A program made the position numbers and the translations under genes. The notes below the pieces were generated by a model that saw only the letters and a program-made list of their open reading frames with translations, was not told the DNA's origin and ran no database searches. Below are positions 8,398 through 44,186 of a stretch of DNA of 64,000 bases, in pieces (position 1 is the stretch's first letter; each line of letters starts with the position of its first letter). This stretch comes from an uncultured Hyphomicrobiales bacterium (GTDB taxonomy: Bacteria; Pseudomonadota; Alphaproteobacteria; Rhizobiales; Xanthobacteraceae). The stretch is taken from the NCBI GenBank assembly GCA_903885555.1, contig CAISIV010000078.1:25686-89685 (forward strand). Direction: 5' to 3'.

Positions 8398-8473
8398 TTG
8401 AGCCGCGCTTGATTGTCTTGCGCCTCCGGCGCGGGCGCGTCACAAATGCTCCCAAAATAAAGGGAGCAGGCGC

Positions 8474-25360: not shown

Positions 25361-25364
25361 ACTC

Positions 25365-26183: not shown

Positions 26184-26306
26184 GCTGCTGCCAGCCCGGT
26201 CGCCATCCCCCAAGCGGCCATAAGTCCTCTTGTGCGAGCCCCGTTGCGCCGCGTAGCTTTGGGCCGGGGAAGCAATGCCGGCGGCTAACGACCGGCAACA
26301 GAGAGG

Positions 26307-27296: not shown

Positions 27297-27326
27297 CGCC
27301 GCCGGCCGATTTTTCCGTGATTGCTG

Positions 27327-27358
27327 CGCAAGCCGGTTCATGCCGGCTTGCGTTTTCC
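27327..27358 (+). terminator. Intrinsic terminator-like hairpin
   Basis: CGCAAGCCGG-ttcatg-CCGGCTTGCG followed by TTTTCC. Confidence 0.6.
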
Positions 27359-27378
27359 TTTAAAGCCGGAATCTCGCA

Positions 27379-29106
27379 ATGACCAAAGTAAAGCGTCCCG
27401 AAGATCTGCGCAGCCATCGCTGGCTCGGCGTCAGCGACATGCGCTCCTTCGGCCACAAGTCGCGCTTGCGTCAGATCGGCTATGACGGCGAGGACTGGGA
27501 AGGCAAGCCGGTCATCGGCATCATCAATACCTGGAGCGAAATCAATCCCTGCCATGCACATCTGCGCGTTCGCGCAGAGAATGTGAAGCGCGGCGTTTTG
27601 CAGGCCGGCGGTTTCCCGATCGAATTGCCGGCGATGTCGCTGGCCGAAACCTTCGTCAAGCCGACCACCATGCTCTATCGCAATATGTTGGCGATGGAGA
27701 CCGAGGAATTACTGCGCAGTCATCCGATCGACGGCGCGGTGCTGATGGGCGGCTGCGACAAGACCACGCCAGGCCTGGTGATGGGCGCGATCAGCATGGA
27801 TATCCCGGCGATCTATATTCCGGCGGGCCCGATGTTGCGCGGCAACTGGAACGGCCAGCAGCTCGGCTCCGGCTCGGACGTCTGGAAATACTGGACCGAG
27901 AAGCGCGCCGGCAATATCTCCGACGACGAGTGGAGCGAGATCGAAGGCGGCATCGCCCGTTCGTTCGGCACCTGCATGGTGATGGGCACGGCGGCGACCA
28001 TGATGGCGATAGCCGAGGCGCTCGGCCTGTCGCTGCCGGGCGCATCGTCGATCCCTGCGGCGGATTCCAATCATCCGCGCATGTGCGGGCAGGCAGGCCG
28101 CCGCATCGTGGATATGGTGTGGGAAGACCTGACACCGAAGAAGATTCTCACCGTCGCGGCGTTCGACAATGCCATCAAGGTACATATGGCGATGGGCGGC
28201 TCGACCAACGCCATCATCCATGTCGTTGCCATGGCACGCCGCGCCGGTATTCCGATGGATATGGAGCGCTTCGACCAGTTGTCGCGCGAAGTCCCGGTGC
28301 TCGCCAATGTGCGGCCGTCGGGCAAGTACCTGATGGAAGACTTCTTCTACGCCGGCGGCCTGCGCGCGTTGATGACACAGATGAAGGCCAAGCTCGATCT
28401 GTCCTGCATCACCGTCACGGGAAAAAGCATCGGCGAGAATATCGACGGCGCCAAAGTTCACATTCCGGACGTGATCCACTCGCTGGAGGACCCGGTTTAT
28501 GCCGAAGGCGCCACCGCGGTGCTGCGCGGCAATCTCGCACCCGACGGCTGCGTCATCAAGCCCGCGGCGGCCGACAAGCGCTTTCTGAAGCATCGCGGCA
28601 AGGCGATTGCTTTCGACGACTACAACCACATGATGCGAGAGATCGATCGCGACGATCTCGACGTCACGCCCGACCATATTCTGGTGCTCAAGAATGCGGG
28701 TCCGAAAGGCGGCCCCGGCATGCCGGAGTGGGGTATGCTGCCGATCCCCAAGCGCCTGCTGGCGCAAGGCGTACGCGACATGGTGCGCATTTCCGACGGC
28801 CGCATGAGCGGCACCAGCTACGGCGCCTGCATTCTGCATGTCGCGCCGGAAAGTTTCGTCGGCGGTCCATTGGCCTTTGTGCAGACCGGCGACGAGATCG
28901 AGATCGACGTCGACGCGCGCCGTATTCATCTGCACGTGTCGGATGCCGAGTTGGCGAACCGTAAGGCGGCCTGGAAGAAACCGGCGCCGAAATATCCGCG
29001 TGGCTACGGAGCGTTATTCTCGGAGCATATCGGCCAGGCCGACGCCGGCTGCGATTTCGATTTCTTAGGCCCGCTTGGGCCGGTTCCTGAGCCGGAAATT
29101 CATTAG
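27379..29106 (+). CDS. IlvD/Edd-family dehydratase (L-arabinonate/pentonate dehydratase-like)
   Basis: Three Fe-S Cys motifs (NPCH, GGCDKT, GTCM), MGGSTNAIIH, GPKGGPGMPE, SDGRMSGT. Confidence 0.9.
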   Translation: MTKVKRPEDLRSHRWLGVSDMRSFGHKSRLRQIGYDGEDWEGKPVIGIINTWSEINPCHAHLRVRAENVKRGVLQAGGFPIELPAMSLAETFVKPTTMLYRNMLAMETEELLRSHPIDGAVLMGGCDKTTPGLVMGAISMDIPAIYIPAGPMLRGNWNGQQLGSGSDVWKYWTEKRAGNISDDEWSEIEGGIARSFGTCMVMGTAATMMAIAEALGLSLPGASSIPAADSNHPRMCGQAGRRIVDMVWEDLTPKKILTVAAFDNAIKVHMAMGGSTNAIIHVVAMARRAGIPMDMERFDQLSREVPVLANVRPSGKYLMEDFFYAGGLRALMTQMKAKLDLSCITVTGKSIGENIDGAKVHIPDVIHSLEDPVYAEGATAVLRGNLAPDGCVIKPAAADKRFLKHRGKAIAFDDYNHMMREIDRDDLDVTPDHILVLKNAGPKGGPGMPEWGMLPIPKRLLAQGVRDMVRISDGRMSGTSYGACILHVAPESFVGGPLAFVQTGDEIEIDVDARRIHLHVSDAELANRKAAWKKPAPKYPRGYGALFSEHIGQADAGCDFDFLGPLGPVPEPEIH

Positions 29107-29134
29107 CGCAATATCAGAACCGACACTTGAGGGG

Positions 29135-30112
29135 ATGACCATGCTGAAAACGATGTCACGGGCATTGCTGGCCGCTGGATTTGTCATCGCGGCATGGCCT
29201 GCGCTGGCGCAGAATTATCCAAGCGGTCCGGTGAAGATGGTCGTCGGCTACGCCGCCGGCGGCACCGGCGACGTCGTGGCACGCATCGTAGCGCCGAAAT
29301 TGCAGGAAGCACTCGGCCAATCGGTGGTGGTCGAAAACCGGCCAGGGGCGACGGGGGCCATTGCCGCGCACGGCGTTGCAACGTCAGCGCCGGATGGTCT
29401 GACGCTGCTGGTCGGTCAGACCGGGGAAGTGGCCATCAATCAGCACATGATGAAGAACCTTAGCTACAATCCGGACAAGGACCTCAAGCCGGTGGCGCTG
29501 CTGGCCATCGTGCCGCTTGCCATGACGGTGCCGGCCAAGGCGCCGTATTCGACCATGCCGGAGTTTCTTAAAGCCCTGCCGGGCCAGAAGATGACCTTTG
29601 CGTCGGCCGGCACCGGAACGCCCGGCCATTTCGCCGGCGAGTTTCTCAAAGCCAAGACCAAGGCCAACCTCGTCCATGTGCCGTACAAGGGCGCTGCGCC
29701 CGCGCTGAACGATCTGCTCGGCAGCCACGTCGATCTGTATTTCCCCGGCATGCCGGCGGTTCAGCCGCATGTGAAATCGGGCCTCTTGAAAGTGCTGGCG
29801 GTATCCTCGGCCAAGCGTTCCGGCATTGCGCCGGACGTGCCGACCATCGCTGAGACCACCGGCATGACGGATTTCGACTTCACGCTGTGGGCCGGCGTGT
29901 TCGCGCCACGCGAGACGCCGCAGGCCATCGTCACGAAGCTCAACACCGAGATCAACAAGGTGCTGAACGATCCGGACACCCGCAAGCGGCTGGTCGAGGC
30001 CGGCGCTGAAGTCGACGCCATGTCGGTTGAGCAGTTCCGGTCTTTCGTCGACCGCGAAAGCAGCAAATATGCGCGCATCATCAAGGAAACCGGCGTCACG
30101 ATGGAGCAGTGA
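29135..30112 (+). CDS. Bug/TctC substrate-binding protein (3)
   Basis: YPSGPVKMVVGYAAGGTGD, ENRPGATG, HVPYKGAAPA. Confidence 0.93.
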   Translation: MTMLKTMSRALLAAGFVIAAWPALAQNYPSGPVKMVVGYAAGGTGDVVARIVAPKLQEALGQSVVVENRPGATGAIAAHGVATSAPDGLTLLVGQTGEVAINQHMMKNLSYNPDKDLKPVALLAIVPLAMTVPAKAPYSTMPEFLKALPGQKMTFASAGTGTPGHFAGEFLKAKTKANLVHVPYKGAAPALNDLLGSHVDLYFPGMPAVQPHVKSGLLKVLAVSSAKRSGIAPDVPTIAETTGMTDFDFTLWAGVFAPRETPQAIVTKLNTEINKVLNDPDTRKRLVEAGAEVDAMSVEQFRSFVDRESSKYARIIKETGVTMEQ

Positions 30113-30153: not shown

Positions 30154-31068
30154 ATGGCCGACGACATTCCTTTCGACAAAACACTCGATCTCGCACCCGA
30201 TACGGTGGACGAGGTAATGCCGGGCGTGCGCCGCGTGATGGCGAACAATCCGGGACCTTTCACCTTCAAGGGTACGCATAGCTACATTATCGGCCGCGGC
30301 AAGGTCGCCATCGTCGATCCGGGCCCGGCCGATGACGCGCATATCGCCGCCCTGCTCGATGCTGTGCGCAACGAGACTGTGACGCATATTTTCGTCACCC
30401 ATACCCACCGCGATCATTCGCCAGCCGTTCCCGCAATCAAGGCCGCCACCGGCGCCACCGTCTATGCCGAAGGCCCGCACCGCGCCGCGCGGCCTTTGCA
30501 CATCGGCGAGCAGAAGCGTCTCGACTCGAGCGGCGATCTCGATTTCCGTCCCGACGTTGTCCTCAAGGATGGCGAAGTGGTGACCGGCGATGGCTGGAGC
30601 GTCGAAGGCGTGACCACGCCGGGCCACTGCGCCAATCACATGGCCTACGCGCTGAAAGGCGCCGACACGCTGTTTGCCGGCGATCACGTGATGGCATGGG
30701 CCACCTCCATCGTCGCGCCGCCGGATGGGGCGATGGTCGACTACATGGCGTCGTTGAACAAGGTCGCCAAACGTCCGGAGCAGTTTTACTTGCCCGGCCA
30801 CGGCCCGGCGATCAAAGAGGCGACGCGCTTCGTGAACTACCTGATCCTGCATCGCAGGGCGCGCGAGGACTCGATCCTGCACCGCCTTGCCAAGGGCGCG
30901 ACCGATATTCCGACCATCGTGCGTTCAAGTTATATCGGTATCGATCCGCGGCTGATCGGCGCTGCGGGTCTCTCCGTGCTGGCGCATCTGGAAGATCTGG
31001 TGACGCGCGGCCTTGTGCAGACCGACGGACCGCCGTCGATCGCGGGCGTTTATCGCCTCGCCAGCTAG
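30154..31068 (+). CDS. MBL-fold metallo-hydrolase
   Basis: THTHRDHS, TPGHCANH, FAGDHVM, LPGHG. Confidence 0.93.
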   Translation: MADDIPFDKTLDLAPDTVDEVMPGVRRVMANNPGPFTFKGTHSYIIGRGKVAIVDPGPADDAHIAALLDAVRNETVTHIFVTHTHRDHSPAVPAIKAATGATVYAEGPHRAARPLHIGEQKRLDSSGDLDFRPDVVLKDGEVVTGDGWSVEGVTTPGHCANHMAYALKGADTLFAGDHVMAWATSIVAPPDGAMVDYMASLNKVAKRPEQFYLPGHGPAIKEATRFVNYLILHRRAREDSILHRLAKGATDIPTIVRSSYIGIDPRLIGAAGLSVLAHLEDLVTRGLVQTDGPPSIAGVYRLAS

Positions 31069-31925
31069 CGCTTCTTGTCGCCCTTTTTGTCGGTCGGCCG
31101 TTTCTTCTCGGCCTTCTTCTCGTCGCGCTCGGACTGTTGTTCGGCGCGCTTTTCCGCGACGCTGGCGGCTTCGTCGATTTCCTCGAGCAGCGCGCGGATG
31201 CGCGAGGCGTTGCCGCCGAAATCGTGGAAGCCGTAGCGTGAGGCCGAGCGGACGTCGATGCGGGAGCCATCGCCGCCCTGTGCACTAACGCGGATCGCTA
31301 CGTCATCGCGGAAGCCCATGATCGGCGTGCGTGCGACCGCTTCAATGGCGCCGGCGCGGCCGGGTGCTGGTGCCCTTGTATCGACCAGCAGCCATTTGCG
31401 CTTGGTGGCGACCGCGAGCGCAGTGTCATAGGCGAGCTTGGCCGGCACCGTGAGTTGCAGCGGCGCGACGTCGGGATAGGCCTTGCGCTGCAGTTCGGCG
31501 GTCGCCTGACCGGGGTAGTCGCTGCGGCCGCGCGGACGCAGCCGCGCCAGGACGTCGAAACGCGGCGGGTTCGAAGTGTCGGTGGTGATGTCGAAGATCG
31601 CGGGCAGCTTGGTGGCGCGGTAGGCGAGGTAGCTCGGATAGGCCAACAGCGCCAGACCAAGGAATAGCCCGAGGAAGGCGTAGCCAAGCCCGCCGAGTCC
31701 CTGCCGCCAAATCACGACGAAAGAGCCAAAGGCGAACAGGATAGCCAAGGCGGCGAACACCAACGAAGCGCCGAAGGTGGCCAGCGCCGGCACGATTTCC
31801 AGCAGCCCCGACCGCAGGATCACGATGGACAGAATAGCGACCGCCAGCGCGAACAGCGCAAAACGGCCGGACCAGGTCGCCAGCCGGGAGTTCGGTTCAT
31901 CGCCAAATGCAGGTCGCCGCGCCAT
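31065..31925 (-). CDS. DUF1499 domain membrane-anchored protein
   Basis: Three N-terminal TMs, IFDITTD..NPP, ARTPIMGFRDDV, IDVRSASRYG..DFG.NA.RI. Confidence 0.9.
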   Translation of the reverse strand: MARRPAFGDEPNSRLATWSGRFALFALAVAILSIVILRSGLLEIVPALATFGASLVFAALAILFAFGSFVVIWRQGLGGLGYAFLGLFLGLALLAYPSYLAYRATKLPAIFDITTDTSNPPRFDVLARLRPRGRSDYPGQATAELQRKAYPDVAPLQLTVPAKLAYDTALAVATKRKWLLVDTRAPAPGRAGAIEAVARTPIMGFRDDVAIRVSAQGGDGSRIDVRSASRYGFHDFGGNASRIRALLEEIDEAASVAEKRAEQQSERDEKKAEKKRPTDKKGDKKR

Positions 31926-31931
31926 TCGTCC

Positions 31932-33035
31932 CTATCCTGCGCAGATTCGTTTCAACGCCGCCCACTCTTTAGCATCGAGAAAGGGCGTCGTGCTCTTGGC
32001 GTCGGCGAATTTATTGATGGCCGCGACCCGGGCCTTGGTTTCGGGGTGATCGAGCAGGATCTTCATGCCGGGCTCGGTGGCGCCGCCGATCCGGGTCAGC
32101 ATCGTGGCCAGCGCGCGGACGTTGCCGCCCGCCTTGTTCATCAGCGCCGCGGCATAGGCATCGGCGGCCGATTCAGCCTCGCGGGTATAGGACGATTGCA
32201 GCACGGTCTTGGCTGCGATCACGACCGCGCCGCCGCCGACGAAATCGCCGAGCAGCATGCCAAACAGGAATGACAGGCCGCCGGCCTGCAATACCGCCTT
32301 GGTGCCGTCGCGGTGGGCGACATGGCCGATCTCATGGGCGATCACGCCGGCGACCTCGTCGGCATTCTCGGCTTTGTCGATCAGGCCGCGGAAGATGTAG
32401 ACCTGACCGCCCGGCAGCGCCAAGGCATTGGCTTCCACTTTTCGCACGACAATACTGCGCAACGGTCCCGGCAATCCGGCGGCGGCTTCCAGCCGGTGAA
32501 TCATCTTGTCGAGCGCAGCGCGGCCGGCCTTTTCGCTGTCTGCCGTTCCGCACTCGAAGGCGGTGCCGGTCTTGCCGGTATCCAGCATCGCGCGCGTCTG
32601 AACGTCGACGGCATCGCCAAGTTTGCGTTCGATCGTAACCGGCAATAACGGCGCGATGCGCTCAGCCAGCGCCGGGATGCCGAACCATGCGACCAGCAGC
32701 ATCGATACGGTCGCCGCCACCGTCCAGCCGATCACGCTGCCACGCTGGCGGCGCTGGATCATACCGGTCCGGTCGATGTGGATCGCCTGCTCGTCCACCG
32801 CATGGGCGAAGTCGGCGTCGAAAATTTCCAGCCGCTCCAGCGCAAGATTGCCGCGACGACCGATCCGTAACACCTTGTCAGGCGCCGTCAGCGGTTCGAG
32901 TTCGTTATAGGGCCAGTTAGCGAGAACGTTGCCGGTTCGATCAGAAATCACCAATGACGCGGCGCCGAGCGTCACCGCCACGTCATGGCGCGCGCTGGTG
33001 ATGCCATCGAAGAAAATGCCGGCGCCCGATTGCAT
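31932..33035 (-). CDS. M48-family Zn metallopeptidase
   Basis: NALALPGG, HExxH motif AHEIGHV, YTREAESAAD, LLDHP. Start set near ATG 33035. Confidence 0.9.
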   Translation of the reverse strand: MQSGAGIFFDGITSARHDVAVTLGAASLVISDRTGNVLANWPYNELEPLTAPDKVLRIGRRGNLALERLEIFDADFAHAVDEQAIHIDRTGMIQRRQRGSVIGWTVAATVSMLLVAWFGIPALAERIAPLLPVTIERKLGDAVDVQTRAMLDTGKTGTAFECGTADSEKAGRAALDKMIHRLEAAAGLPGPLRSIVVRKVEANALALPGGQVYIFRGLIDKAENADEVAGVIAHEIGHVAHRDGTKAVLQAGGLSFLFGMLLGDFVGGGAVVIAAKTVLQSSYTREAESAADAYAAALMNKAGGNVRALATMLTRIGGATEPGMKILLDHPETKARVAAINKFADAKSTTPFLDAKEWAALKRICAG

Positions 33036-33039
33036 CACG

Positions 33040-34299
33040 TTAGTATCCGCCTGTGTTGAGCGCATCGGCCAGGCCTTCGCCGATGGGCGAACTTGCCCGT
33101 CCGGCAGCCTTAACCTGATCCAGCGCCGACAGGCCCGATAATTGAAGCGATTCCATGCCCAGCTGCCAGAGCGACAGCAGCACGGTGGCGCGATAGACGG
33201 TCGAGAAGCCGAGCGCGAGGATAACGTAGCCGCCGAGCAGAATGACGGTCGCCGCGACCTCGCCGAAGATGCTGGTTTGTTCGCCGCCGGCGAGCAAGCC
33301 CGCTGCCACCAAAGCGAGTCCGCCGACAATCGCCGCGACGATACTGAACAGAATCGCGTACCCGACGAACCGTACATAGGCGCCGTAGACCTGCGCGGTA
33401 CGCAGCTTCGACGTCATGACGATGTCGCCGAACCGGAGGCCCGACGACCACCAGCGCAGCATCAGCGCCTGATAGACCGGATACAGCACCGCGGCGAAAG
33501 TCACGGAGGCGCCGCCCATCAGCATTGCAAAGACCATGACATCTGCGATTTGCGGGTTGGTGCTCTCAATCCTGCCCATGACGTCGTCGCCACCGGCCGC
33601 AGCCGCATCGGCGAGCGCCTGCCAGTCCACCACTTCGATGAATGCTCCGATGGTGACGGCAATCGGCGCCACCACGGCAATCCACATCGGCAGCCCGCGC
33701 AGGAACAGCCGCAGGCCGGAGCCGTCGAACCGTCCCGCGAGATCGCCGTAATAAGTGTGACGCATCTTGTAGCGCTCAAGGCTCGCGACCTGGAAAGGAT
33801 ACGCCAGCCCGATCGTCAGCCCCGTCAAAATCCACCACAGGCTGGCACGCAGTGCATAAAGCAACGCCGAGCCGCTTTGGTAGAACCGCAAACCGCGATA
33901 AATCGTGCGTGTCAGCCGGTAGCGGCGTGCGCGAAACACGGCGTATTGCCCAAGGACGCCGAGCGCGAGAAACGCAATCATACCCGACATCTGTCCGATG
34001 GTGCCGAGATCCAGCGCGGCCAGAAAAAATCCGAGATAGATCGGAATGAGAATGGCGATCGCGATCAGAAAGCCGATCAGCAGTTCCAGCGGCGTGCCGG
34101 TATATTCCAGCGTCTCGCCGGCCACCTCGGTGTTCGCCCATAAATAGCGGCGCACATCTGTGTTGAGCCAGAAGCGATAGATGCCGAGCGTCACCATCAA
34201 CAACAGCGCGCCGCGCACCAGCAGCCGCCAATAGGCTCGGCGATGTCCCAAAAACCGCACGCTGCCGCCCGGCGCGGGTTCTGCCTCGAGGCTGCTCAT
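33040..34299 (-). CDS. DUF898 (YjgN-like) membrane protein
   Basis: LLLMVTLGIYRFW, YLWANT, EYTGTPLELLIGF, YRLTRTIYRGLRF. Confidence 0.88.
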   Translation of the reverse strand: MSSLEAEPAPGGSVRFLGHRRAYWRLLVRGALLLMVTLGIYRFWLNTDVRRYLWANTEVAGETLEYTGTPLELLIGFLIAIAILIPIYLGFFLAALDLGTIGQMSGMIAFLALGVLGQYAVFRARRYRLTRTIYRGLRFYQSGSALLYALRASLWWILTGLTIGLAYPFQVASLERYKMRHTYYGDLAGRFDGSGLRLFLRGLPMWIAVVAPIAVTIGAFIEVVDWQALADAAAAGGDDVMGRIESTNPQIADVMVFAMLMGGASVTFAAVLYPVYQALMLRWWSSGLRFGDIVMTSKLRTAQVYGAYVRFVGYAILFSIVAAIVGGLALVAAGLLAGGEQTSIFGEVAATVILLGGYVILALGFSTVYRATVLLSLWQLGMESLQLSGLSALDQVKAAGRASSPIGEGLADALNTGGY

Positions 34300-34368
34300 G
34301 GTGTGAGGGATAAAGGGTAGGCGCGGGCGAGGCAATATTGGTCTTTGCGCGGCTTAGTCGCCGCTGCC

Positions 34369-36699
34369 CTAAGCGACCTTCTGCTTCGAAGGCGCTTGCG
34401 TGGCCAGCCGCTCCAGGATGGCCTCGCTCATCATCGGCTTGCCGAACAGATAACCTTGGCCTTCGTGACAGCCTTGCGACAGCACCAGCTTCATCTGCTC
34501 TTCGGTCTCGATGCCTTCGGCGACCACGATCTTGTCGAGATTGGCGCCGAGCGTGGCAATGGCGCCGATGATGGCGCGCGCATCGCGGCCGTCGCCGAGA
34601 TCGGAAATGAACGACTGGTCGATCTTGATCTTGTGGAACGGGAACTTGCGCAGATAGTTGAGCGACGAGTAGCCGGTGCCGAAATCGTCCAGCGACAAAT
34701 TGACGCCGAGATTGTTGAGCTGCTGCATGGTCGCCAGCGTGTAGTCATTGTCTTCGAGCAACAGCCGTTCGGTGACTTCCAGCTCAAGCCGCTGCGCCGG
34801 CAGGCCCGATTTCGCCAGCGCCGCCACCACCTGCAAGGCCAGGCCGCGTTCGCGGAATTGAATCGGCGACAGGTTGACCGCGACCTTGACCCCGTGCGGC
34901 CAGGTATTGGCTTCGACGCAGGCGCGGTTCAACGCCCACTCGCCGAGCGCGATGATCAGGCCGGTCTCCTCAGCGACCGGAATGAAAACCGACGGCGGTA
35001 CATCGCCGCGTATCGGATGCGTCCAGCGCATCAGCGCTTCGCAGGTCGTGGTCTTGCCGGTACGCAGATCGACCAGTGGCTGATACTTCAAGTGGAATTG
35101 GTCGAGCGCCAGCGCTTCTCGCAGATCGAGCTCGAGATTCCGGCGATCCTGGGCCGCGTCTTCCATTTCCATGGCGAAGAAACGGTGATCATTGCCGCCG
35201 CCGTTCTTGGCGGCGTAAAGCGCCATGTCGGCCTTCTTCAGCAATTCGTCCGGATCGGTGCCGTCGTGCGGCGCCATCGCAATGCCGATCGAGGCGCCAA
35301 TGTCGATGCGGTGGCCTTCGATTTCGAACGGTTCCTTGAGCGCGCGGGCAAGCCTGGTCGCCATGACTTTGGCGTCCTGCTGGCGTTCGGTCGCAATCTG
35401 CATGACGACGAACTCGTCGCCGCCGAAGCGGGTGATCATGTCGGCCGGGCCGATCACGGCGGTCAACCGGGCCGCGACTTCCTTGAGCAGCTTGTCGCCG
35501 ATCGGATGGCCGAGCGTGTCGTTGATCGCCTTGAACCGGTCGAGATCGATCAGATGGATGGTAATGCGATTCTCGGGCTTGTGGACTTCCTTGAGCATCG
35601 CGGTGATGCGCTCACGGAACTGGGTACGGTTAGCGAGCCCGGTCAATTCATCGAACTTGGCAAGATGCGTGATGCGTTCCTGCGCGCGCTTGCGTTCAGT
35701 GACGTCCTCGAGAATGACGACCGAACCGCCACCCGGCATCATGCGGCGCGATACTGCGAGCGTTCGGTCGCCGTCCGGCGAAGTCTGGAACTGGTCGAGC
35801 GATTCTTCGCGCAAGCCGGCGAGCAGATCGTTGAGGATGCGCTTGACGCTCTGGGACTTGTGGTTGCCGGCCCGGATGCTGTGCCGGATCAACTGCGAGA
35901 TCCTCATGCCGACGCGTACCGGCGCCTTTTCCAGATGCAGCAATTCCAGGAAACGTTCGTTCCAGACCTGCACGCGATCCTGCGGATCCAGCATGCAAAG
36001 GCCGTGCGACATGTTGTTGAGCGCGACGTCGAAGCGGTTGGCCTGCTCCTCGAAGCGCGCGGCGAGTGCGGCTTCCTTGCGGGTCATGGTCAGCGCCTGA
36101 ACAATGATGTTCCGGGTGCTGAGCGTGATGTCGGTGATGCCGTACATGAACAACAGCACGACGACGCCGAGGGCCTGATGAACCCAGTCTGGATAGATCA
36201 ACAGTGCGGCGACCATCGGCATCGTGCTGAAGGTCAACTGACCGAACGCGATCAACGGCCGGCCGGCGTTGCGGCCTGAAATGGCCGCCGCATAGCCCGC
36301 CGTTGAGGTCGTAACGGCCATCTGTAGCGACGCATCGATCGCGGGGTTGAGTGTCAGCCAGCACAACAAGCCGAGCAGCGCGGCGAAGGCCCAGGCGCCA
36401 TATTCGTAAACGTGCTCCCAGATTTTGGTGGCGGTGAGCTTCTCGCTCTCTTTGCTTTTATTATATAGCACGGCCGACAAAACGCGCAGCATGCCCACCG
36501 CTAGAATAGCGGCCGACACCGCCATGATCAGAGCATTGCCGACGCGCAGGGCGACCGCGGCGCCGATGATAGAGCAGGCGACCGCGCCGACGACCAGTGA
36601 CGCGACCGGCGCGAACAACGATTTGATCAGCGCAGCGCGAATCTCCGTCGGGAGTCCGGCGTCGGCCTTCCTGGTCTGAAATAGCTTCTTGATCAGCAT
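34369..36699 (-). CDS. Membrane-anchored PAS-GGDEF-EAL c-di-GMP protein
   Basis: About 6 TMs, PAS (ALNNMSHGLCMLD), DLDRFKAINDTLGH..RFGGDEF, EALMRW, SLDDFGTGYSSL, KIDQSF, AEGIET. No RxxD I-site. Confidence 0.95.
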   Translation of the reverse strand: MLIKKLFQTRKADAGLPTEIRAALIKSLFAPVASLVVGAVACSIIGAAVALRVGNALIMAVSAAILAVGMLRVLSAVLYNKSKESEKLTATKIWEHVYEYGAWAFAALLGLLCWLTLNPAIDASLQMAVTTSTAGYAAAISGRNAGRPLIAFGQLTFSTMPMVAALLIYPDWVHQALGVVVLLFMYGITDITLSTRNIIVQALTMTRKEAALAARFEEQANRFDVALNNMSHGLCMLDPQDRVQVWNERFLELLHLEKAPVRVGMRISQLIRHSIRAGNHKSQSVKRILNDLLAGLREESLDQFQTSPDGDRTLAVSRRMMPGGGSVVILEDVTERKRAQERITHLAKFDELTGLANRTQFRERITAMLKEVHKPENRITIHLIDLDRFKAINDTLGHPIGDKLLKEVAARLTAVIGPADMITRFGGDEFVVMQIATERQQDAKVMATRLARALKEPFEIEGHRIDIGASIGIAMAPHDGTDPDELLKKADMALYAAKNGGGNDHRFFAMEMEDAAQDRRNLELDLREALALDQFHLKYQPLVDLRTGKTTTCEALMRWTHPIRGDVPPSVFIPVAEETGLIIALGEWALNRACVEANTWPHGVKVAVNLSPIQFRERGLALQVVAALAKSGLPAQRLELEVTERLLLEDNDYTLATMQQLNNLGVNLSLDDFGTGYSSLNYLRKFPFHKIKIDQSFISDLGDGRDARAIIGAIATLGANLDKIVVAEGIETEEQMKLVLSQGCHEGQGYLFGKPMMSEAILERLATQAPSKQKVA

Positions 36700-36836
36700 C
36701 TGCTGCTCAGCCCCTTCGATAGCTCAAAGGTACCGGGGGAAGTTCAACAGGGATGAAACGGAACAGGCGATCGCGAGCTTTGGTGAATCCTTGGCCAATA
36801 GCTTGCTGACGAGCTCAGTAAAATTATTCTCTCCCG

Positions 36837-36851
36837 TTAACCATGCGATAA
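36837..36851 (-). promoter_or_regulatory. CtrA-like box upstream of the GGDEF-EAL gene
   Basis: TTAA-CCATGCG-ATAA (one mismatch, includes TTAACCAT). GANTC at 36785. Confidence 0.5.
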
Positions 36852-37046
36852 TCATAACTGGCAGGCCCCATCACCGCTCGTTATGCGCGGAACTTGCCGT
36901 CGCGCTCGAAAGGCCTGCAACAACTCACTGTCGTGGTTAATCCACGTTAAGCAGTCGTTTTATGCCGATGGCACAAGGAGAAAATCATTGTCGTCGTGCG
37001 TGGAACGCGCACCACGCATGCAGGCGCACCACAACGTTTCGTTGAA

Positions 37047-37071
37047 GGAACGCTAACGATCTGTTAGGGTT
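37047..37071 (+). promoter_or_regulatory. Candidate EcfG-type promoter upstream of the rpfF-like gene
   Basis: GGAAC-N16-GGTT, 14 nt before GTG 37086. Confidence 0.35.
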
Positions 37072-37085
37072 TCCAAATAGTTAAC

Positions 37086-38126
37086 GTGAGTGCAGAAATG
37101 TCGATGTATGCGTATGCTGACGTTTCTTCCCCGGTTAAGCGCGGGGTGCGTGCGGTTCCGCCGGCGCCGATGATCTTGCAGCGGCCGCAGATCGATCCGC
37201 GAATGATCGATCTCAAGGTACTCGACCCGAAAGCGGCCGAGCCGAAAGTCATCGATCTTAAGAAAAGCACCGACGCGCGCCGGCTCTTCGAGCTCGAGCA
37301 GCTCGAAGTGACGTTTGAAAAAGAAGCCGGCGCGATCTGGACTTTCATGAAGCCGCGTGGCCGCGCGAGCTACAATTCGGATCTGCTGGAAGACTTTCAT
37401 GCTTGGCAGCGCGGCATCGTCGCTGCTTTTGAAAACCGCGCGAGCGATCTGAAGTATCTGCTGCTCGGCTCGCGCACCCCGGGCATCTTCAATCTCGGTG
37501 GCGATCTCAATCTTTTTGCCGACCGTATCCGCGATCGCGCCGCGCTTGTCGCTTATGGCGAATCCTGCGTGCGTATTCTCGACCGCAACATGGCGACGCT
37601 CGGCATGCCGATGATCACCATCGGTCTTGCGCAGGGCGACGCACTTGGTGGCGGTTTTGAATCGCTGCTGTCGTTCAACATTATCATTGCCGAGAAGCAG
37701 GCAAAATTCGGCTTCCCGGAAACGATGTTCGGCCTGTTCCCCGGTATGGGCGCCTATAGCCTGGTATCGCGCCGTTGCGGTTCGGCCTTCGCCGAAGAGA
37801 TGATGCTGAGCGGCAAGACCTATACCGCCGACGAGATGAAGCAAGCCGGGCTGATCCATATGGTGGTCGAGCGCGGGCAGGGTATCGAGGCGGCGAAGGA
37901 CTATATGGAGCGCAACAAACGCCGCCATAACGGCAACCGGGCAGTGTTTCTGGCCGGCCGTGCCGTGAACCCCGTGCCGCTCGAAGAGATGGATCGCGTG
38001 GTGCAGATCTGGGCCGATACCTGCCTTGCCCTCAGCGACCGCGATCTCAAGGTGATGCAGCGTCTGGTCGCGGCGCAGGATCGGCTGAACGGCACGGCTC
38101 AGGCCGGCCAGCAAGCGGCGGAATAA
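37086..38126 (+). CDS. RpfF/DSF-synthase-like crotonase (enoyl-CoA hydratase family)
   Basis: WTFMKPRGRASYN, FNLGGDLNLF, GDALGGGFE, FPETMFGLFPGMGAYS closely follow RpfF, with both catalytic Glu positions present. Exact start uncertain (GTG 37086, ATG 37098 or 37104). Confidence 0.8.
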   Translation: MSAEMSMYAYADVSSPVKRGVRAVPPAPMILQRPQIDPRMIDLKVLDPKAAEPKVIDLKKSTDARRLFELEQLEVTFEKEAGAIWTFMKPRGRASYNSDLLEDFHAWQRGIVAAFENRASDLKYLLLGSRTPGIFNLGGDLNLFADRIRDRAALVAYGESCVRILDRNMATLGMPMITIGLAQGDALGGGFESLLSFNIIIAEKQAKFGFPETMFGLFPGMGAYSLVSRRCGSAFAEEMMLSGKTYTADEMKQAGLIHMVVERGQGIEAAKDYMERNKRRHNGNRAVFLAGRAVNPVPLEEMDRVVQIWADTCLALSDRDLKVMQRLVAAQDRLNGTAQAGQQAAE

Positions 38127-38294: not shown

Positions 38295-39836
38295 TCAAGT
38301 CGTCGACGCGAAATCCTGCTCAAGCGATTTCAGCGGCGCACGGACTGTGCAGACGACGCCGTAAGGCTCGTAGACGAGATGAACCTCGCCGCCGAGCTGG
38401 GCGGCGAGGCCATGCTCGACCAGCCGCGCGCCGAAACCCTTGCGGGCGGGCGCAACTACTGTCGGCCCGCCGCTTTCAGCCCAGCGCAGTTCGAGCTGGT
38501 CGCCTTTGGGCGAGGGCACGGTCCGCCATGTAATCTCGACCTGGCCGCCATGCTGCGACAGTGCGCCGTATTTCGCCGCGTTGGTGCAAAGCTCGTGCGT
38601 TGCCATCGCCACGGCCAGCGTGCTGCGTGGCCCGAGGCGCACGTGGCCGCCGTCGACGCGGAAGCGCGAGGCGTCCTCGGCAAAGGGTTCGATCGCTACT
38701 TTGATGACGTCGCCGAGATCGGCGGCACCGACGCCGCGGCCGCCCATCAGTACATCCTGGGCATTCGCCAGTGCCTTCAGACGTCCACCGAATGCAGCGC
38801 GCGCGGCATCCAGCGTCGTGCCTTCGCGCAGGCTCTGGTTGGCGATTGCTTGCACCGTCGCCATCAAGTTCTTGACGCGGTGGTTCAATTCATTGGCCAG
38901 CAGTTCGCGGTGCTCTTCGGCTTCCTTGCGCTCGGTAATGTCGACCGCGGCGCCGGGAAACCGCGTCGGCTGGCCTTTGTCGTCGCGCAAGCAGTAGCCG
39001 CGCGCCAGCACCCAGCGCACCGTTTCATCCCATTGCAGCAGCCGGTATTCGCAGCTGAACTCGCCACCCGTCCGCACCGCCGTCTCGATGTCGCGTTCGA
39101 CTCGTGCGAAATCGCCGGGATGAATGTGATCGGTGAAGGTGCGCATCGGTGCGCCGGTGGCGGCCTGTGCCGGATCGACCCCGTAGAGGCGTGCAATTTT
39201 TTCGTCGGTGTAGACCCGGTCTTCCGGAATATGCCAGTCCCATACGCCGACAACGCCGGCATCGAGCGCGAGCTGAAACCGCTCTTGGCTGGCGCGCAAG
39301 GCTTCCATCGCGCGATGCTGTGCGGTGACGTCGTTGCAGACCACCAGCACGCCGCCGACGCCGCCCACTTTGGTCTCGTCGTCGATCGGGCTGTAACCGT
39401 AGGTCCACCAGACGTCTTCACGCTTGCCGTGGCGGGTGACGGGGACGAGGGCGTCTTCGTGCCAGGTGGCACCTTCGCCCTTCATCACGAGTTCGATCTG
39501 CGGCCCGATGATCGGCCAGATTTCTTCCCAGCATTCGCGACCGCGTTGGCCGAGCGCGCTCGGATGCCGCTCGGGCCCCATCGTCTGCCGGTAGGCGTCA
39601 TTGTAGAACTGGATCAGCTCGGGACCCCACCAGATAAACATCGGGTGCCGGGTGTTGAGCAAAAGGCGCACGCTGGTGCGCAGGCTTTGCGGCCAGCTCT
39701 CCGGCGCGCCGAGCGGGGTGGTCTCCCACGGGTAAACGCGCATCAGCGCGCCCATCTCGCCGCCGCCGGCCAGGAAGTTCAGCCGGTCTTCGGGTATTTG
39801 GCCGAGTTTCGGGGCGATTTCGACGTCGGTCGTCAT
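38295..39836 (-). CDS. Soluble PAS-domain HWE histidine kinase
   Basis: ELNHRVKNL H-box, ELCTNAAKYGAL, LRWAESGGP, with PAS/PAC segments upstream. Start set at ATG 39836. Confidence 0.92.
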   Translation of the reverse strand: MTTDVEIAPKLGQIPEDRLNFLAGGGEMGALMRVYPWETTPLGAPESWPQSLRTSVRLLLNTRHPMFIWWGPELIQFYNDAYRQTMGPERHPSALGQRGRECWEEIWPIIGPQIELVMKGEGATWHEDALVPVTRHGKREDVWWTYGYSPIDDETKVGGVGGVLVVCNDVTAQHRAMEALRASQERFQLALDAGVVGVWDWHIPEDRVYTDEKIARLYGVDPAQAATGAPMRTFTDHIHPGDFARVERDIETAVRTGGEFSCEYRLLQWDETVRWVLARGYCLRDDKGQPTRFPGAAVDITERKEAEEHRELLANELNHRVKNLMATVQAIANQSLREGTTLDAARAAFGGRLKALANAQDVLMGGRGVGAADLGDVIKVAIEPFAEDASRFRVDGGHVRLGPRSTLAVAMATHELCTNAAKYGALSQHGGQVEITWRTVPSPKGDQLELRWAESGGPTVVAPARKGFGARLVEHGLAAQLGGEVHLVYEPYGVVCTVRAPLKSLEQDFASTT

Positions 39837-39959
39837 ACTCACACTTTGTGGGCCCGGAGGGCCGGTAACGGGTCTTGAGCCTAGCACGGCCAACTGCAAT
39901 CCTAAACGGCGCGATTTTCGGCTATATATGCTAGCCTCATACTGTTGCACGCCGATGGA

Positions 39960-40637
39960 ATGACCATGGTCAATACCGAGCCCAAAGCACCCATTCGTAT
40001 TGCTATCGTCGAAGACGATTTGAGCTTTCGAAAACTTCTGGTGTCGACGTTACAGGCCGACCCGGACCACGCCGTGGTGGCCGAGTTTTCCGAGGGCGGT
40101 GCGGCGGTTCGCGCCATGTCCGATCTCGCGCCCGATATGGTTTTGGTCGACCTGGGGTTGCCGGATATGTCGGGGATCGAGGTGATCCGGCAATTGAAGG
40201 CGTCGCATCCCGAATGCGACATCCTGGTCGTCACGACCTTCGGCGACGAGAGGACGATCACATCGGCATTGGAAGCGGGCGCCAACGGCTATCTGCTGAA
40301 AGGGACGACGCTCGAGGAATTGCGACGCGACATTCAGCATCTGCGCACCGGGGGTTCGCCGCTGTCACCGATGGTGGCGCGGCAGCTTCTCAACAAGCTG
40401 CAATCCAAAGCCGCCGACAGCGCGCCGCAAGTGCCCGGCGGCACCAAGCTGACGCGGCGTGAGCATGACATCTTGCAAATGATCGCTAAGGGCTTTTCCT
40501 ACGCCGAGACGTCGCAGATCTGCGGAGTCGCCAGCGCGACCGTGCACAGCCATCTCAAGAGCATTTACCGCAAGCTCGAAGTCCACTCGAAGACCGAGGC
40601 GGTCTACGAGGCGCGGCGCCGAAGCCTTATTTCTTAA
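39960..40637 (+). CDS. NarL/LuxR-family response regulator
   Basis: IAIVEDD, LVDLGLPDMSG, GYLLK, and HTH LTRREHDILQMIAKG..TVHSHLKSIYRKL. Confidence 0.95.
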   Translation: MTMVNTEPKAPIRIAIVEDDLSFRKLLVSTLQADPDHAVVAEFSEGGAAVRAMSDLAPDMVLVDLGLPDMSGIEVIRQLKASHPECDILVVTTFGDERTITSALEAGANGYLLKGTTLEELRRDIQHLRTGGSPLSPMVARQLLNKLQSKAADSAPQVPGGTKLTRREHDILQMIAKGFSYAETSQICGVASATVHSHLKSIYRKLEVHSKTEAVYEARRRSLIS

Positions 40638-40648
40638 AGCCTGATTTC

Positions 40649-42322
40649 CTAAGCGGCACGATCCGGCAGAGCCGTCCGGTCCGCCGGCGGCATCTTCAAT
40701 TCGATACGGACCGTTGTGCCCTTGTCCGGGCTGGTGTCGATCACAAGCGTGCCGCCCGTCGAAATCTTGCGGATGCGCATTTTCATATTAAAAATGCCGC
40801 GTCCGGCGCTGCTACTCGAGTCAAATCCGCAGCCATCGTCCGCGACCGCGATGACGATCGCCGGCGTTGCTTCGTCGACATAAGCCGACAGAGTGACGTT
40901 TTGCGCCCGCGAGTGATGCAGCACATTGCTCAGCGCCTCCATCAGGATCAGCTTCATCGACAGCACATCGCGCGACGATAGTGCTGTAATGCTCGGCAGT
41001 TCCTGCACGCGCCAATGCAGATCGATGCCAGCCAGTTCGATGGCGCTTGCCATGCGATGCCTGACGCTGCCGAGCACGAGATTGATGTCGCCGTGGATAG
41101 GCTCGGTGCTGTCGACCAAGAGCCGCAGTTCCATCAGGATTTCGCCGATGCGGCGTTTGACGTCGGCCAGATTCATCGTCTCCGACGAGAAATGCGCGAG
41201 CAGCGCGGATAGGCTGGCGCCGATGCTGTCGTGCATGTCGGCGGAAATGTTCTGCCGTTCGTCCATGGCGGACTTGACGATCTCCAGCCGCGCGCGCTGC
41301 GCGGACTTTTCCAGGCGCCGGATGAAAAGAGCGGAGGCCACCATGGCTGCTGTCAGCACAAACCAGCACAACGCGATAATATAGTAAGTGTTGAGATACA
41401 GGCTGCGCAGGTAATCGCCGTCGTAGCCAACCACGACATAGAACGGCGTGGTATCGGAGACGACGAAGGTGCCGATGCGGGTGACGTTATCCGCGCTGCT
41501 TCGTCCGTAAAACGTGCCCTTCTTTTCGCCGGCCAGAACGCGCTCATAGACCTGCCCCATTTTCGGGATGGAGGCGCCGTAGCCGATCGTGCCGCTCAAC
41601 GAACGGATGCGCACGATGCCGTCTTTGCCGGTCAGTGACGCGATGCCCTGGTCGCTGAGTTTGAGCTTTTCGTAGATGTCGTTGAAATGCGCGAGCCGGT
41701 ACGACGCAACGACGACGCCCTTGAAATTTCCGGATGCATCCTGCAACGGGCGCGAGAACTGGATCGACCACTCGTTTGTCAGGTCGCCCCGCGTCGGCAC
41801 GCTGATATAGACCTTTGCATCGCCGCGGCCCTCGGCGTGGACGCGGAAAATGTTTCGGTCCTTCAGAGATATTTTCGGCACCGGGTCGACGCGTGCGCTT
41901 GCGATCAGCGTGCCATCGCGGCCGATGATGGCGGGTCCGATCACGGTTTCGCGCAAGGCGTAGCGCGTCAGTAGTTGGTGCAACTGGGTTTCATTGGCCG
42001 GCGAAATGTCGAGACCGCGAAGCTGGTCGGAGACCTGGCTGAGGACGGCGTCGAGGTTCGCAGCCGCTTCCTCGAAACCTGCCAGCAGCATCTGGGAAAT
42101 GTTGCCGGTATCCCGATACAGTTCGACCTCGGCGCGTTCCTTGAACTGGGCGCCGGCAAAGACGCATAGCGCCAGCACGATTGCCGAAAATCCGGCGCAA
42201 ACCAGCGCCATCGAGAGGCGGGAAAAACGGCCAAAAAGCTTTGCCAAAGTCGTATTTCCGCTCACGGCCACCGCACCCGCTGAAATCTGTCCGGAGGAGG
42301 GGACGATAGGGGCGCCAGCCAT
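40649..42322 (-). CDS. Sensor histidine kinase (Cache-like periplasmic domain, HisKA_3/HATPase)
   Basis: Two TMs, ERQNISADMHDSIG, EALSNVLHHS, DDGCGFD, GRGIFNM. Start set at ATG 42322. Confidence 0.9.
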   Translation of the reverse strand: MAGAPIVPSSGQISAGAVAVSGNTTLAKLFGRFSRLSMALVCAGFSAIVLALCVFAGAQFKERAEVELYRDTGNISQMLLAGFEEAAANLDAVLSQVSDQLRGLDISPANETQLHQLLTRYALRETVIGPAIIGRDGTLIASARVDPVPKISLKDRNIFRVHAEGRGDAKVYISVPTRGDLTNEWSIQFSRPLQDASGNFKGVVVASYRLAHFNDIYEKLKLSDQGIASLTGKDGIVRIRSLSGTIGYGASIPKMGQVYERVLAGEKKGTFYGRSSADNVTRIGTFVVSDTTPFYVVVGYDGDYLRSLYLNTYYIIALCWFVLTAAMVASALFIRRLEKSAQRARLEIVKSAMDERQNISADMHDSIGASLSALLAHFSSETMNLADVKRRIGEILMELRLLVDSTEPIHGDINLVLGSVRHRMASAIELAGIDLHWRVQELPSITALSSRDVLSMKLILMEALSNVLHHSRAQNVTLSAYVDEATPAIVIAVADDGCGFDSSSSAGRGIFNMKMRIRKISTGGTLVIDTSPDKGTTVRIELKMPPADRTALPDRAA

Positions 42323-42325
42323 CCT

Positions 42326-42445
42326 ATCCCCAATTTTGGGGATTGGTCGAACCCTTGTGCCTGATAGACGCTCAGCCGGGCATTTTCTGAGCGTTACCAA
42401 GGGTTTTGAACCCGAACGCATCCGTTTCGGCAGGGTCTATCAGGC
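42326..42445. other. Structured intergenic element with nested and alternative inverted repeats
   Basis: 11-bp IR GCCTGATAGAC 42359-69 / GTCTATCAGGC 42435-45. 8-bp IRs ACGCTCAG/CTGAGCGT and AACCCTTG/CAAGGGTT. Hairpin ATCCCCA/TGGGGAT. Confidence 0.6.
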
Positions 42446-42446
42446 G

Positions 42447-43091
42447 ATGAGCATGGAATTAGGCTCCAAAGAGATGTTCATGCTGTTCCCGACGCCGTTG
42501 TTCACGGGAAAGCTGCTCGATATTTCCGCCTGCGACCGCATCGAAAAGACCCTGCGCGACATGCAGAAGCTCGGCGCCGGCACGGCCTCGCAGGCCAAGG
42601 CGGCCGCTTACATGACACCGGACAACCTCCAGACCAATCCGGACCTGAAAGAGCTGACCGATCTTGTGATGGCGGAATCCAACCAGGTGCTCGACGCTTT
42701 CAAGATCAAGCGCGACTCGCACTACATCACCAACATGTGGGGCAACATCACCCACCCCAATCATCGCCACCACATGCACATTCATCCGAATTGCCTGCTA
42801 AGCGGCATCATTTACATCAAGACACCGGTCAACTGCGGGCCGACGATGTTTGCCTCGCCGCGGCAGTTGTCGCGCATGATCGAACCGACGTTTACCGCCA
42901 AGAACGAAATCAATTCCGACGTCTTCATCTTCCCGGCCGAGAAGGGCCGCATGCTGATGTGGCCGAGCTACCTGCCGCACGCGGTCGAGCACGGCACCGC
43001 CAACGAAGACGAAGACCGTATCGTCGTCGCCTTCAACGTCATGATCCGCGGCCTGACCGATCAGCTCACGATGCGGATGGATTTCAAGTAG
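42447..43091 (+). CDS. Putative 2OG-Fe(II) oxygenase (TIGR02466-like)
   Basis: LFPTP N-terminus, HxH motif HMHIHPNCLLSGIIY, LMWPSYLPHAV, RIVVAFN. Confidence 0.85.
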   Translation: MSMELGSKEMFMLFPTPLFTGKLLDISACDRIEKTLRDMQKLGAGTASQAKAAAYMTPDNLQTNPDLKELTDLVMAESNQVLDAFKIKRDSHYITNMWGNITHPNHRHHMHIHPNCLLSGIIYIKTPVNCGPTMFASPRQLSRMIEPTFTAKNEINSDVFIFPAEKGRMLMWPSYLPHAVEHGTANEDEDRIVVAFNVMIRGLTDQLTMRMDFK

Positions 43092-44069
43092 CTACTGCGC
43101 CGTCACGCCAGCCTTCTTGATGATCGGAACCCATTTGTCGATTTCCGATTTCAGGAAGGCCTGCAAGGCCGCCGGCGTCGCGCGTTCCTGAGATACGGTC
43201 TGCGCGCCTGAACCGGCGAAACGGTTTTTCACGTCGGGATCGAGCAAAGCCTGCTGCAAGGCCTTCGACAGTTTGTCGACGATCGGCTTCGGCGTGCCTT
43301 TGGGCGCGTACATCGCGAACCAGACGGTGATCTCGAAGCCGGGCAGGCCGGCTTCCGACGCGGTCGGCAATTCGGGAAAAGCCTCGAGCCGCTGTTTGGT
43401 CGTCACCGCATAGGCCTTGAGGCTGCCAGCCTTCACCGCCTGTCCGACGTTGAGCGTCTGATCGCACATGAAATCGAACTGTCCGCCGATCAGGTCGGCG
43501 AGCGCCGGGCCTGTGCCTTTGTACGGCACGCTGGTGACATTGGTGCCGATGGCATCGAAGAACAGCAGGCCGCACAGATGCGAGGCCGAACCGATGCCGG
43601 CAAAGCCGTAGCTGAGCTTGTCCTTGTTCGCTTTCACATGTGCGACGAACTCTTTCAGGTTGTTCGCGGGAAAATCCTTCTTGGCGACGAAAGCCATCGG
43701 CGACTCGGCGATGATGCCGATCGGCTCGAAGTCCTTGATCGCGTCGTAGCGCAGGTTCGGATAGAGCGCGGTATTGGCGGCGTGGCCGAAATGCATGACG
43801 AGCAGCGAATGCCCATCGGGAGCCGAGGCCGCGACCTTCGCCGTGCCGATGGTGCCGCCGGCGCCACCGATATTCTCGACGACAATTTGTCCGCCGAGCA
43901 CTTTGCTCATGCCAGCCGCGGCGATGCGGGTGATGACATCGCCGGGCCCGCCAGCGGCATAGGGCATCATCATCATGATTTGCCGTGAGCCGGGAAAATC
44001 CTCAGCCAAGGCGGTGGTGGCGGAAAAGCACGTCAAAGCGAGCGCAAACGCGCCACGGATCGCGGTCAT
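43092..44069 (-). CDS. Bug/TctC substrate-binding protein (4)
   Basis: MPYAAGGPGD, VENIGGAGGTIG, VPYKGTGPA. Strong GGAGG SD before ATG 44069. Confidence 0.93.
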   Translation of the reverse strand: MTAIRGAFALALTCFSATTALAEDFPGSRQIMMMMPYAAGGPGDVITRIAAAGMSKVLGGQIVVENIGGAGGTIGTAKVAASAPDGHSLLVMHFGHAANTALYPNLRYDAIKDFEPIGIIAESPMAFVAKKDFPANNLKEFVAHVKANKDKLSYGFAGIGSASHLCGLLFFDAIGTNVTSVPYKGTGPALADLIGGQFDFMCDQTLNVGQAVKAGSLKAYAVTTKQRLEAFPELPTASEAGLPGFEITVWFAMYAPKGTPKPIVDKLSKALQQALLDPDVKNRFAGSGAQTVSQERATPAALQAFLKSEIDKWVPIIKKAGVTAQ

Positions 44070-44186
44070 GATGGTCCCCTCCCAAGGCGCCGGCACCCAT
44101 TTTTATTGTTTGGTGTGCCGTCGATGCGCGCAATAGTAGCGGACGGCGAAGGCTGCCGCTACGGACGAAAATCATGCGGCGGAAGG

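Follow-up and report, generated by a model that had tools for sequence, protein, structure and literature searches.

Does an alphaproteobacterium that carries an RpfF-like crotonase gene beside a membrane-bound enzyme of cyclic di-GMP (c-di-GMP) turnover communicate by a signal of the diffusible signal factor (DSF) family? The question is raised by a stretch of 64,000 nucleotides (contig CAISIV010000078.1, positions 25,686 to 89,685; assembly GCA_903885555.1), hereafter the window, in which the crotonase P0002 and the membrane protein P0001 are encoded side by side. On the evidence presented below, we consider it rather likely that the two proteins are a synthase of a DSF-family (cis-2-unsaturated fatty acid) signal and a new class of membrane receptor controlling c-di-GMP, a pair type not yet described. 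DSF signalling was treated as gammaproteobacterial in a 2026 survey, which distinguishes three operon types, rpfBFCHG, rpfF/rpfR and dspI (PMC13711827). In the open-access literature we found no published alphaproteobacterial or Sphingomonas DSF system and no paper on the locus type described here. The host is a Pseudolabrys-like soil alphaproteobacterium represented by a metagenome-assembled genome (MAG) of 4.27 Mb in 320 contigs (95% complete). The closest public relative of P0002, which is 91% identical, comes from a MAG of Pseudolabrys sp., a genus placed in the Xanthobacteraceae of the Hyphomicrobiales.

The two genes are divergently oriented, and P0001 combines an N-terminal membrane domain, here called TM-A, with PAS_7, GGDEF and EAL domains (Table 1); no kinase domain was found in it by Pfam. 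The initial annotation of this DNA described a crotonase with RpfF-type motifs and a divergent PAS-GGDEF-EAL gene across a 386-bp spacer, with intact GGDEF and EAL motifs. Open reading frame coordinates, translations and Pfam matches bear this out, and the motifs of P0002 are GGGFE (aa 188–192), FPE (aa 210–212) and LFPGMGAYS (aa 217–225). Its estimate of about six transmembrane helices in P0001 agrees with the AlphaFold2 model described below. It also recorded neither RpfC nor RpfG next to the pair, an absence that extends to the entire 95%-complete MAG, in which searches for an RpfC-type sensor and for an HD-GYP domain gave nothing. The receptor role of P0001 is supported by this result, because the host genome has no RpfC-type sensor or HD-GYP protein to serve instead.

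Table 1. Coordinates of the P0001/P0002 locus in the window (aa, amino acid positions in the encoded protein)
Feature	Position	Strand	Evidence and remarks
P0001, membrane c-di-GMP enzyme, TM-A/PAS_7/GGDEF/EAL, 776 aa	34369..36699	(-)	Open reading frame and Pfam; predicted receptor and effector
EAL domain, aa 525-755	34435..35127	(-)	Pfam 5.3e-68; motifs EAL (CEALMRW), DDFGTG, KIKID, EGIE, QGYLF
GGDEF domain, aa 347-503	35191..35661	(-)	Pfam 1.4e-45; RFGGDEF intact
PAS_7 domain, aa 227-341	35677..36021	(-)	Pfam 5e-27
TM-A, unnamed six-helix N-terminal membrane domain, aa 1-215	36055..36699	(-)	Alignments, AlphaFold2
R143-N144-A145-G146-R147-P148 motif, short TM4-TM5 loop	36256..36273	(-)	Strongest TM-A signature, (near-)invariant in 63 sequences
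Divergent intergenic region, 386 bp	36700..37085	.	Conserved blocks among 21 loci of the window's type
P0002, RpfF-like crotonase, 346 aa	37086..38126	(+)	NCBIfam, PDB matches, tree; predicted DSF-family signal synthase
Crotonase core, aa 65-339	37278..38102	(+)	Alignment to 3m6m
E192	37659-37661	(+)	Equivalent of X. campestris RpfF Glu141, alignment to 3m6m
E212	37719-37721	(+)	Equivalent of X. campestris RpfF Glu161, alignment to 3m6m

P0002 matches the NCBIfam model NF006452 (PRK08788) with 347.5 bits, where 177 are required, over model positions 12–288 of 291. Its best matches in the PDB are the RpfF enzymes of Stenotrophomonas and Xanthomonas (1e-51) and of Burkholderia (5e-44), and ordinary crotonases are matched at 1e-17 or weaker only. 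The sequence is 40% identical to RpfF of Xanthomonas campestris and 33% identical to RpfF of Burkholderia (Bcam0581), two enzymes that share 39% identity with each other. Homologues are labelled "DSF synthase" by the JGI pipeline and generic crotonase by NCBI.

The catalytic and substrate-pocket residues of X. campestris RpfF comprise Glu141, Glu161, Gly85, Leu136, Gly137, Gly138, Met170, Trp258 and Leu276 (PMC9864630). All nine are matched in P0002, the glutamates by E192 and E212 and the remaining residues, in the order given, by G138, L187, G188, G189, M221, W309 and L327. Eight of them are invariant in a 16-sequence alignment; the ninth, L187, is replaced in two rows, once by Gln and once by Tyr.

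Trees were computed for 133 rows and, with a site-heterogeneous model, for 47 rows. The 47-row tree separates an RpfF-like clade that includes P0002 from the ordinary crotonases with a support of 100/99 and a branch of 2.9 changes per site, and the 133-row tree agrees. Within the 47-row tree, all crotonases associated with TM-A form one clade (support 91/75). When the type of partner is mapped on the crotonase tree, six changes are required, which is the minimum possible, compared with 28 when the labels are shuffled. The characterised RpfF enzymes cluster with alphaproteobacterial sequences linked to RpfC, and P0002 belongs to the separate TM-A-associated clade. P0002 is, by sequence, an RpfF-like enzyme that does not belong to the narrowly defined RpfF group.

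The membrane partner carries a domain that was not recognised as any known family or solved fold. No Pfam family, the MASE families included, matches aa 1–215 of P0001, and no sequence match was found in the PDB. The AlphaFold2 model of aa 1–225 (pLDDT 90.6, pTM 0.85) consists of two short N-terminal helices followed by six membrane helices, with a continuous helix (aa 172–223) that extends from TM6 into the PAS domain. In an alignment of 63 sequences with P0001 as the reference, the (near-)invariant residues are R21, R72, E95, Y98, G101-A102, G135-Y136 and Q154, in addition to the RNAGRP motif listed in Table 1. A known fold was considered for TM-A and was not supported, as the best Foldseek hit in the PDB has a TM-score of 0.45 at a non-significant E-value of 1.8. 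A diverged RpfC sensor was also rejected, since the comparison with the RpfC-like membrane domain gave a BLASTP E-value of 10 and an hhalign probability of 0.4%. Among 1.84 billion representative proteins, 542 clusters contain TM-A at E<=1e-10, always at the N-terminus. The outputs behind it in ten sampled full-length proteins are PAS_7-GGDEF-EAL, GGDEF-EAL, PAS_7-GGDEF or PAS-PAS-GGDEF-EAL.

The association of TM-A with the crotonase is conserved well beyond the host. Named genomes were scanned and yielded 80 related loci, from Pseudolabrys, Chelatococcus, Sphingomonadales and one Caulobacteraceae MAG. When individual segments of P0001 were used to search these loci, TM-A proved to be encoded beside the crotonase in 68 of them. 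Conservation of the pair across genomes, which the initial annotation had put forward as a check, is borne out by this count. With three further loci from a search of the window's own bacterial family, TM-A adjoins the crotonase in 71 of the 123 loci classified in total. TM-A is followed by PAS-GGDEF-EAL in 28 of these 71 loci (Pseudolabrys, other Hyphomicrobiales and Chelatococcus albus), and orthologues of P0001 at 64–95% identity adjoin the crotonase in 28 loci. In another 42 loci, from Sphingomonas, Allosphingosinicella, Parasphingopyxis and Altericroceibacterium, GGDEF-EAL follows without a PAS domain. A single locus, L114 of the Caulobacteraceae MAG (5455–9803), was found by a Pfam check to encode TM-A followed by HisKA-HATPase-REC. 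Almost every partner protein has intact GGDEF and EAL motifs. Because TM-A stays with the crotonase whatever the output domain, it is TM-A, and neither the PAS nor the output, that is the conserved partner; the predicted sensor module is retained in combination with varying outputs.

This pattern bears on two alternatives. In the first, the PAS domain would be the fatty-acid sensor and the membrane domain only an anchor, an arrangement that the comparison drawn in the initial annotation implies and that is suggested by RpfR, which binds the Burkholderia diffusible signal factor (BDSF) via its PAS domain (PMC4698668), and by the presence of PAS_7 in P0001. The 42 Sphingomonadales-type partners without PAS and the Caulobacteraceae partner with a kinase nonetheless keep TM-A with its invariant polar motifs. 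Moreover, apart from the PAS domains of WalK and DHH proteins, no solved PAS domain, that of RpfR included, was detectably similar to the PAS of P0001 (aa 202–350) in a sequence-level phmmer search of the PDB at E<=10, and P0001 lacks the N-terminal RpfF-interaction (FI) domain of RpfR. We regard sensing by the PAS domain as distinctly improbable. In the second alternative, the two genes would be adjacent by chance and would share no functional link. GGDEF-EAL genes are indeed common in the host genome, with about 12–15 copies in 4.27 Mb, but the pair is kept across at least three orders, through changes of output domain and of orientation, which is divergent or convergent, and both genes are found together in a genome also where they are not linked. 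Chance adjacency is hardly credible on these grounds and is effectively refuted.

A few loci deviate in their details. In L114, a second kinase-REC gene is located on the other side of the crotonase. In L066, L067, L070 and L081, from Parasphingopyxis and relatives, a second GGDEF-EAL gene is found in tandem directly upstream of the TM-A-GGDEF-EAL gene. The partner genes of L091 (7879–9139), L096 (5296–6489) and L079 (7869–9156) look split or truncated (the BLAST match falls into two segments in different frames, or the open reading frame is short) and may represent pseudogenes or assembly errors.

Homologues of P0002 were found in 17 of the 151 genomes of the window's bacterial family, at loci of two types. 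Type A has the arrangement of the window, with the crotonase beside a full-length orthologue of P0001. In type B, the gene of a crotonase about 45% identical to P0002 precedes genes for a hybrid kinase resembling RpfC (membrane domain, HisKA, HATPase, REC and HPt) and for a REC-PAS-GGDEF-EAL regulator. Such loci are also found in the same genus as the window. In genome G098, a type B locus (L036, 3151–13323), whose crotonase is 46% identical to P0002, occupies the chromosomal site that corresponds to window positions 30154–38126, next to MBL, DUF1499, M48 and DUF898 genes. With either a TM-A or an RpfC-like module at a fixed site within one genus, it looks as if one signalling module had taken the place of the other.

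An even sample of 401 Alphaproteobacteria gives the base rates, with TM-A in 4 genomes and a PRK08788 crotonase in 32. In this 32-genome set, an RpfC-like hybrid kinase adjoins the crotonase in about 24 of the 27 loci with enough flank. Since the characterised RpfF enzymes nest among homologues linked to RpfC-like kinases, the RpfF-like family as a whole behaves as a family of signal synthases.

The main rival explanation takes the crotonase out of signalling altogether. It would make a lipid intermediate for envelope or exopolysaccharide (EPS) biosynthesis and no diffusible signal, and the TM-A enzyme would be co-located because c-di-GMP controls the matrix, or TM-A would monitor the state of the membrane lipids. 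Twelve crotonases of Novosphingobium, Erythrobacteraceae and related genomes fit this picture. They form a clade (support 100*) nested among the TM-A-linked ones, and no sensor gene adjoins them; their neighbours are the genes of exosortase EpsH and an asparagine-synthase-type amidotransferase, as in Erythrobacter longus (L115, 3646–7834) and in genome G296 (L124, 6995–10858). With such neighbours, these crotonases might serve biosynthesis and not signalling. The occurrence of distant TM-A proteins without an RpfF-like gene points in the same direction. Two kinds of evidence stand on the other side. The exosortase-linked genomes still retain TM-A, as 10 of the 11 searched encode a TM-A-GGDEF-EAL protein of about 660 aa elsewhere (the exception is a 1.9-Mb partial MAG), and the unlinked copies preserve the signature residues, the RNAGRP motif included. 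Furthermore, the family includes characterised DSF synthases, its other members are linked to RpfC-like kinases and not to biosynthetic genes, and the genes flanking the pair in the window include none for the biosynthesis of lipids or EPS. We judge the biosynthetic role unlikely, though less so than the other alternatives.

Several further observations weigh, together with the exosortase context, against the pair being a DSF synthase and its receptor. P0002 scores 205.8 bits (206.1 in the genome search) with the NCBIfam RpfF equivalog NF053515, whose cut-off is 550. It is also placed outside the smallest clade that contains the characterised RpfF enzymes (X. campestris, S. maltophilia and B. 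cenocepacia), on a backbone that is only partly resolved. Given this position, the product of P0002 could differ from theirs. The phylogenetic comparison with ordinary hydratases, which was set as a test beforehand, has in this way given a divided answer: P0002 is inside the RpfF-like clade but outside the group of characterised enzymes. The catalytic glutamate pair is common to ordinary hydratases too. Distant TM-A proteins are not regularly accompanied by the crotonase. Of four sampled on metagenome contigs, three have no crotonase in the available flanks; the fourth, the TM-A-PAS_7-GGDEF-EAL protein P0158, speaks for the pairing, as an RpfF-like crotonase with 39% identity to P0002 is encoded at a distance of about 1 kb. 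No RpfF-like crotonase was found in the complete genome G398, which encodes a distant TM-A-GGDEF-EAL protein. The co-occurrence counts are phylogenetically non-independent and come mostly from Sphingomonadales, although they form a consistent pattern. Finally, the crotonase product and signal binding are predictions, and the cytoplasmic placing of the conserved TM-A residues is predicted from the positive-inside rule.

For the synthase-receptor pair, the following mechanism is proposed. P0002 would act as RpfF does, dehydrating 3-hydroxyacyl-ACP, cleaving the thioester and releasing a free cis-2-enoic acid. After partitioning into the membrane, this lipid would meet its sensor in the six helices of TM-A in P0001, where its carboxylate could be held by the invariant polar residues R21, R72, E95, Y98, Y136, R143, N144, R147 and Q154 on what appears to be the inner-leaflet or cytoplasmic side. 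The Lys/Arg count suggests a topology in which both termini of TM-A are inside and in which the RNAGRP loop, E95/Y98 and R21 would be on the cytoplasmic side. The helix after TM6 would relay the change to PAS_7-GGDEF-EAL and shift c-di-GMP turnover, most likely towards degradation by analogy with RpfG and RpfR. The cyclase half of P0001 shows one peculiarity of the host lineage. At the position of the RxxD motif of the I-site, P0001 (35220–35240, aa 487–493) and its close relative in L041 have GPAD, with the Arg lost, and many relatives have RPxD; product inhibition may have been lost in the host lineage.

The apparent orientation of the conserved polar residues towards the cytoplasm, where the soluble synthase is located, would also suit a docking function. 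TM-A or P0001 would then mainly dock or regulate the synthase by protein-protein contact, as the REC domain of RpfC and the FI domain of RpfR do with RpfF, and the signal would be sensed elsewhere. To our knowledge, a contact between synthase and receptor is present in all known DSF systems; such contacts are reportedly the subject of Cheng 2010 and Waldron 2019, and they count in favour of docking. PDB entries 3m6m and 6dgn are among the PDB matches of P0002. When the crotonase was searched for a conserved docking segment in its N-terminal extension, only LFxLxQLEV, just before the core, proved common to the clade, and beyond it no clade-wide docking motif was seen. The host genome offers no other candidate receptor, with neither an RpfC-type sensor nor an HD-GYP protein, and docking and sensing are not mutually exclusive. 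A role restricted mainly to docking is improbable in our view.

Compared with the known systems, the pair would work most like RpfF(Bc)/RpfR of Burkholderia cenocepacia and Cronobacter, which responds to BDSF. In both cases the synthase gene is located next to the gene of one protein that joins sensing (predicted for P0001) to turnover of c-di-GMP by a GGDEF-EAL tandem, with no phosphorelay. P0001 nevertheless is not an RpfR. RpfR is soluble, has an N-terminal FI domain and senses by PAS, whereas P0001 has a six-helix membrane domain and no FI domain, and its PAS_7, not detectably related to the RpfR PAS, is dispensable in orthologues. With the RpfF/RpfC/RpfG system of X. campestris, which responds to DSF, the pair shares an RpfF-like synthase in which the catalytic and pocket residues are preserved, a membrane-embedded sensor and an output through c-di-GMP, the last two being predicted here. 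The hybrid kinase, HPt and REC-HD-GYP components are lacking in the window type, and TM-A does not resemble the RpfC-type sensor. The residues conserved in TM-A seem to be located in the cytoplasm or at the inner leaflet, and not in an N-terminal periplasmic peptide. The alphaproteobacterial loci with an RpfC-like kinase and a REC-PAS-GGDEF-EAL (or REC-PAS-kinase) regulator have crotonases of the same PRK08788 family, at 45–49% identity, and occur in the same bacterial family. They retain two-component logic and the RpfC-type sensor, in contrast to the window type, in which one TM-A protein takes the place of both. MASE-type input domains of GGDEF/EAL proteins and histidine kinases are similar in that a polytopic N-terminal membrane module precedes varied outputs, but no Pfam MASE family matches TM-A, and we know of no MASE domain with a dedicated partner enzyme.

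The initial annotation regarded the locus as a third architecture with a membrane receptor in a Hyphomicrobiales lineage. The layout is indeed neither that of RpfC/RpfG nor that of RpfR. The conserved partner, however, is the six-helix domain and not the PAS, which is absent from the Sphingomonadales orthologues, with a kinase fusion in Caulobacteraceae. The assignment to Hyphomicrobiales needs two amendments: the system is common in Sphingomonadales and not restricted to the former lineage, and the same family and even the same genus also carry an RpfF-like module with an RpfC-like kinase.

If the pair is a signal synthase and its receptor, the signal family would extend to abundant soil and phyllosphere Alphaproteobacteria. 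A third principle of signal reception would come with it, in which a one-component sensor in the membrane uses a domain not described before. More tentatively, and with somewhat less confidence than for the pair itself, we propose that TM-A represents a novel kind of lipid-signal receptor domain, which would bind a cis-2-unsaturated fatty acid at its inner-leaflet face through the Arg-rich RNAGRP site, and that DSF-type quorum sensing, so far treated as gammaproteobacterial (including Burkholderiales), would be widespread in Alphaproteobacteria, down to strains of Sphingomonas from plant leaves and soil that are already in culture. These ideas are directly testable because many carriers have been cultured, among them Sphingomonas paucimobilis NBRC 13935, S. 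aerolata NW12, the isolates Leaf20, Leaf34, Leaf231 and Leaf242, Chelatococcus albus and Parasphingopyxis lamellibrachiae. The invariant RNAGRP motif provides an immediate target for mutagenesis.

A MAFFT alignment of the intergenic regions of 21 loci revealed three conserved blocks, TGGTGAA (about 36781–36787), GGTTAAT (about 36935–36941) and ATTG...CTGTTAGGGT...AGTTAAC (about 37040–37085), which may be binding sites of some regulator. No sigma-70 consensus promoter was found in 36700–37085. An EcfG-like promoter (GGAAC-N16-GGTT) is unsupported because GGAAC is not conserved even in L041, the locus of the 91%-identical relative, while the CTGTTAGGGT...GTTAAC block is conserved. The true start of P0002 is probably the ATG at 37098 (MSMYAY...), which is conserved in relatives; the spacer would then measure 398 bp instead of 386.

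Between the crotonase and a Peptidase_Mx gene, a block at 38295–43091 contains genes for an HWE histidine kinase (38295–39950), a NarL/LuxR-type response regulator (39945–40637) and a dCache sensor kinase (40649–42421), followed by a 2OG-Fe(II) oxygenase gene. These genes were considered as parts of the module and rejected, because the orthologous type A loci L025 and L026 are without them; the block is probably an insertion specific to the host lineage. Several genes for periplasmic binding proteins of the Bug/TctC type (receptors of tripartite tricarboxylate transporters), identified from their sequences, are dispersed nearby at 24392–30112 and 43092–44096.

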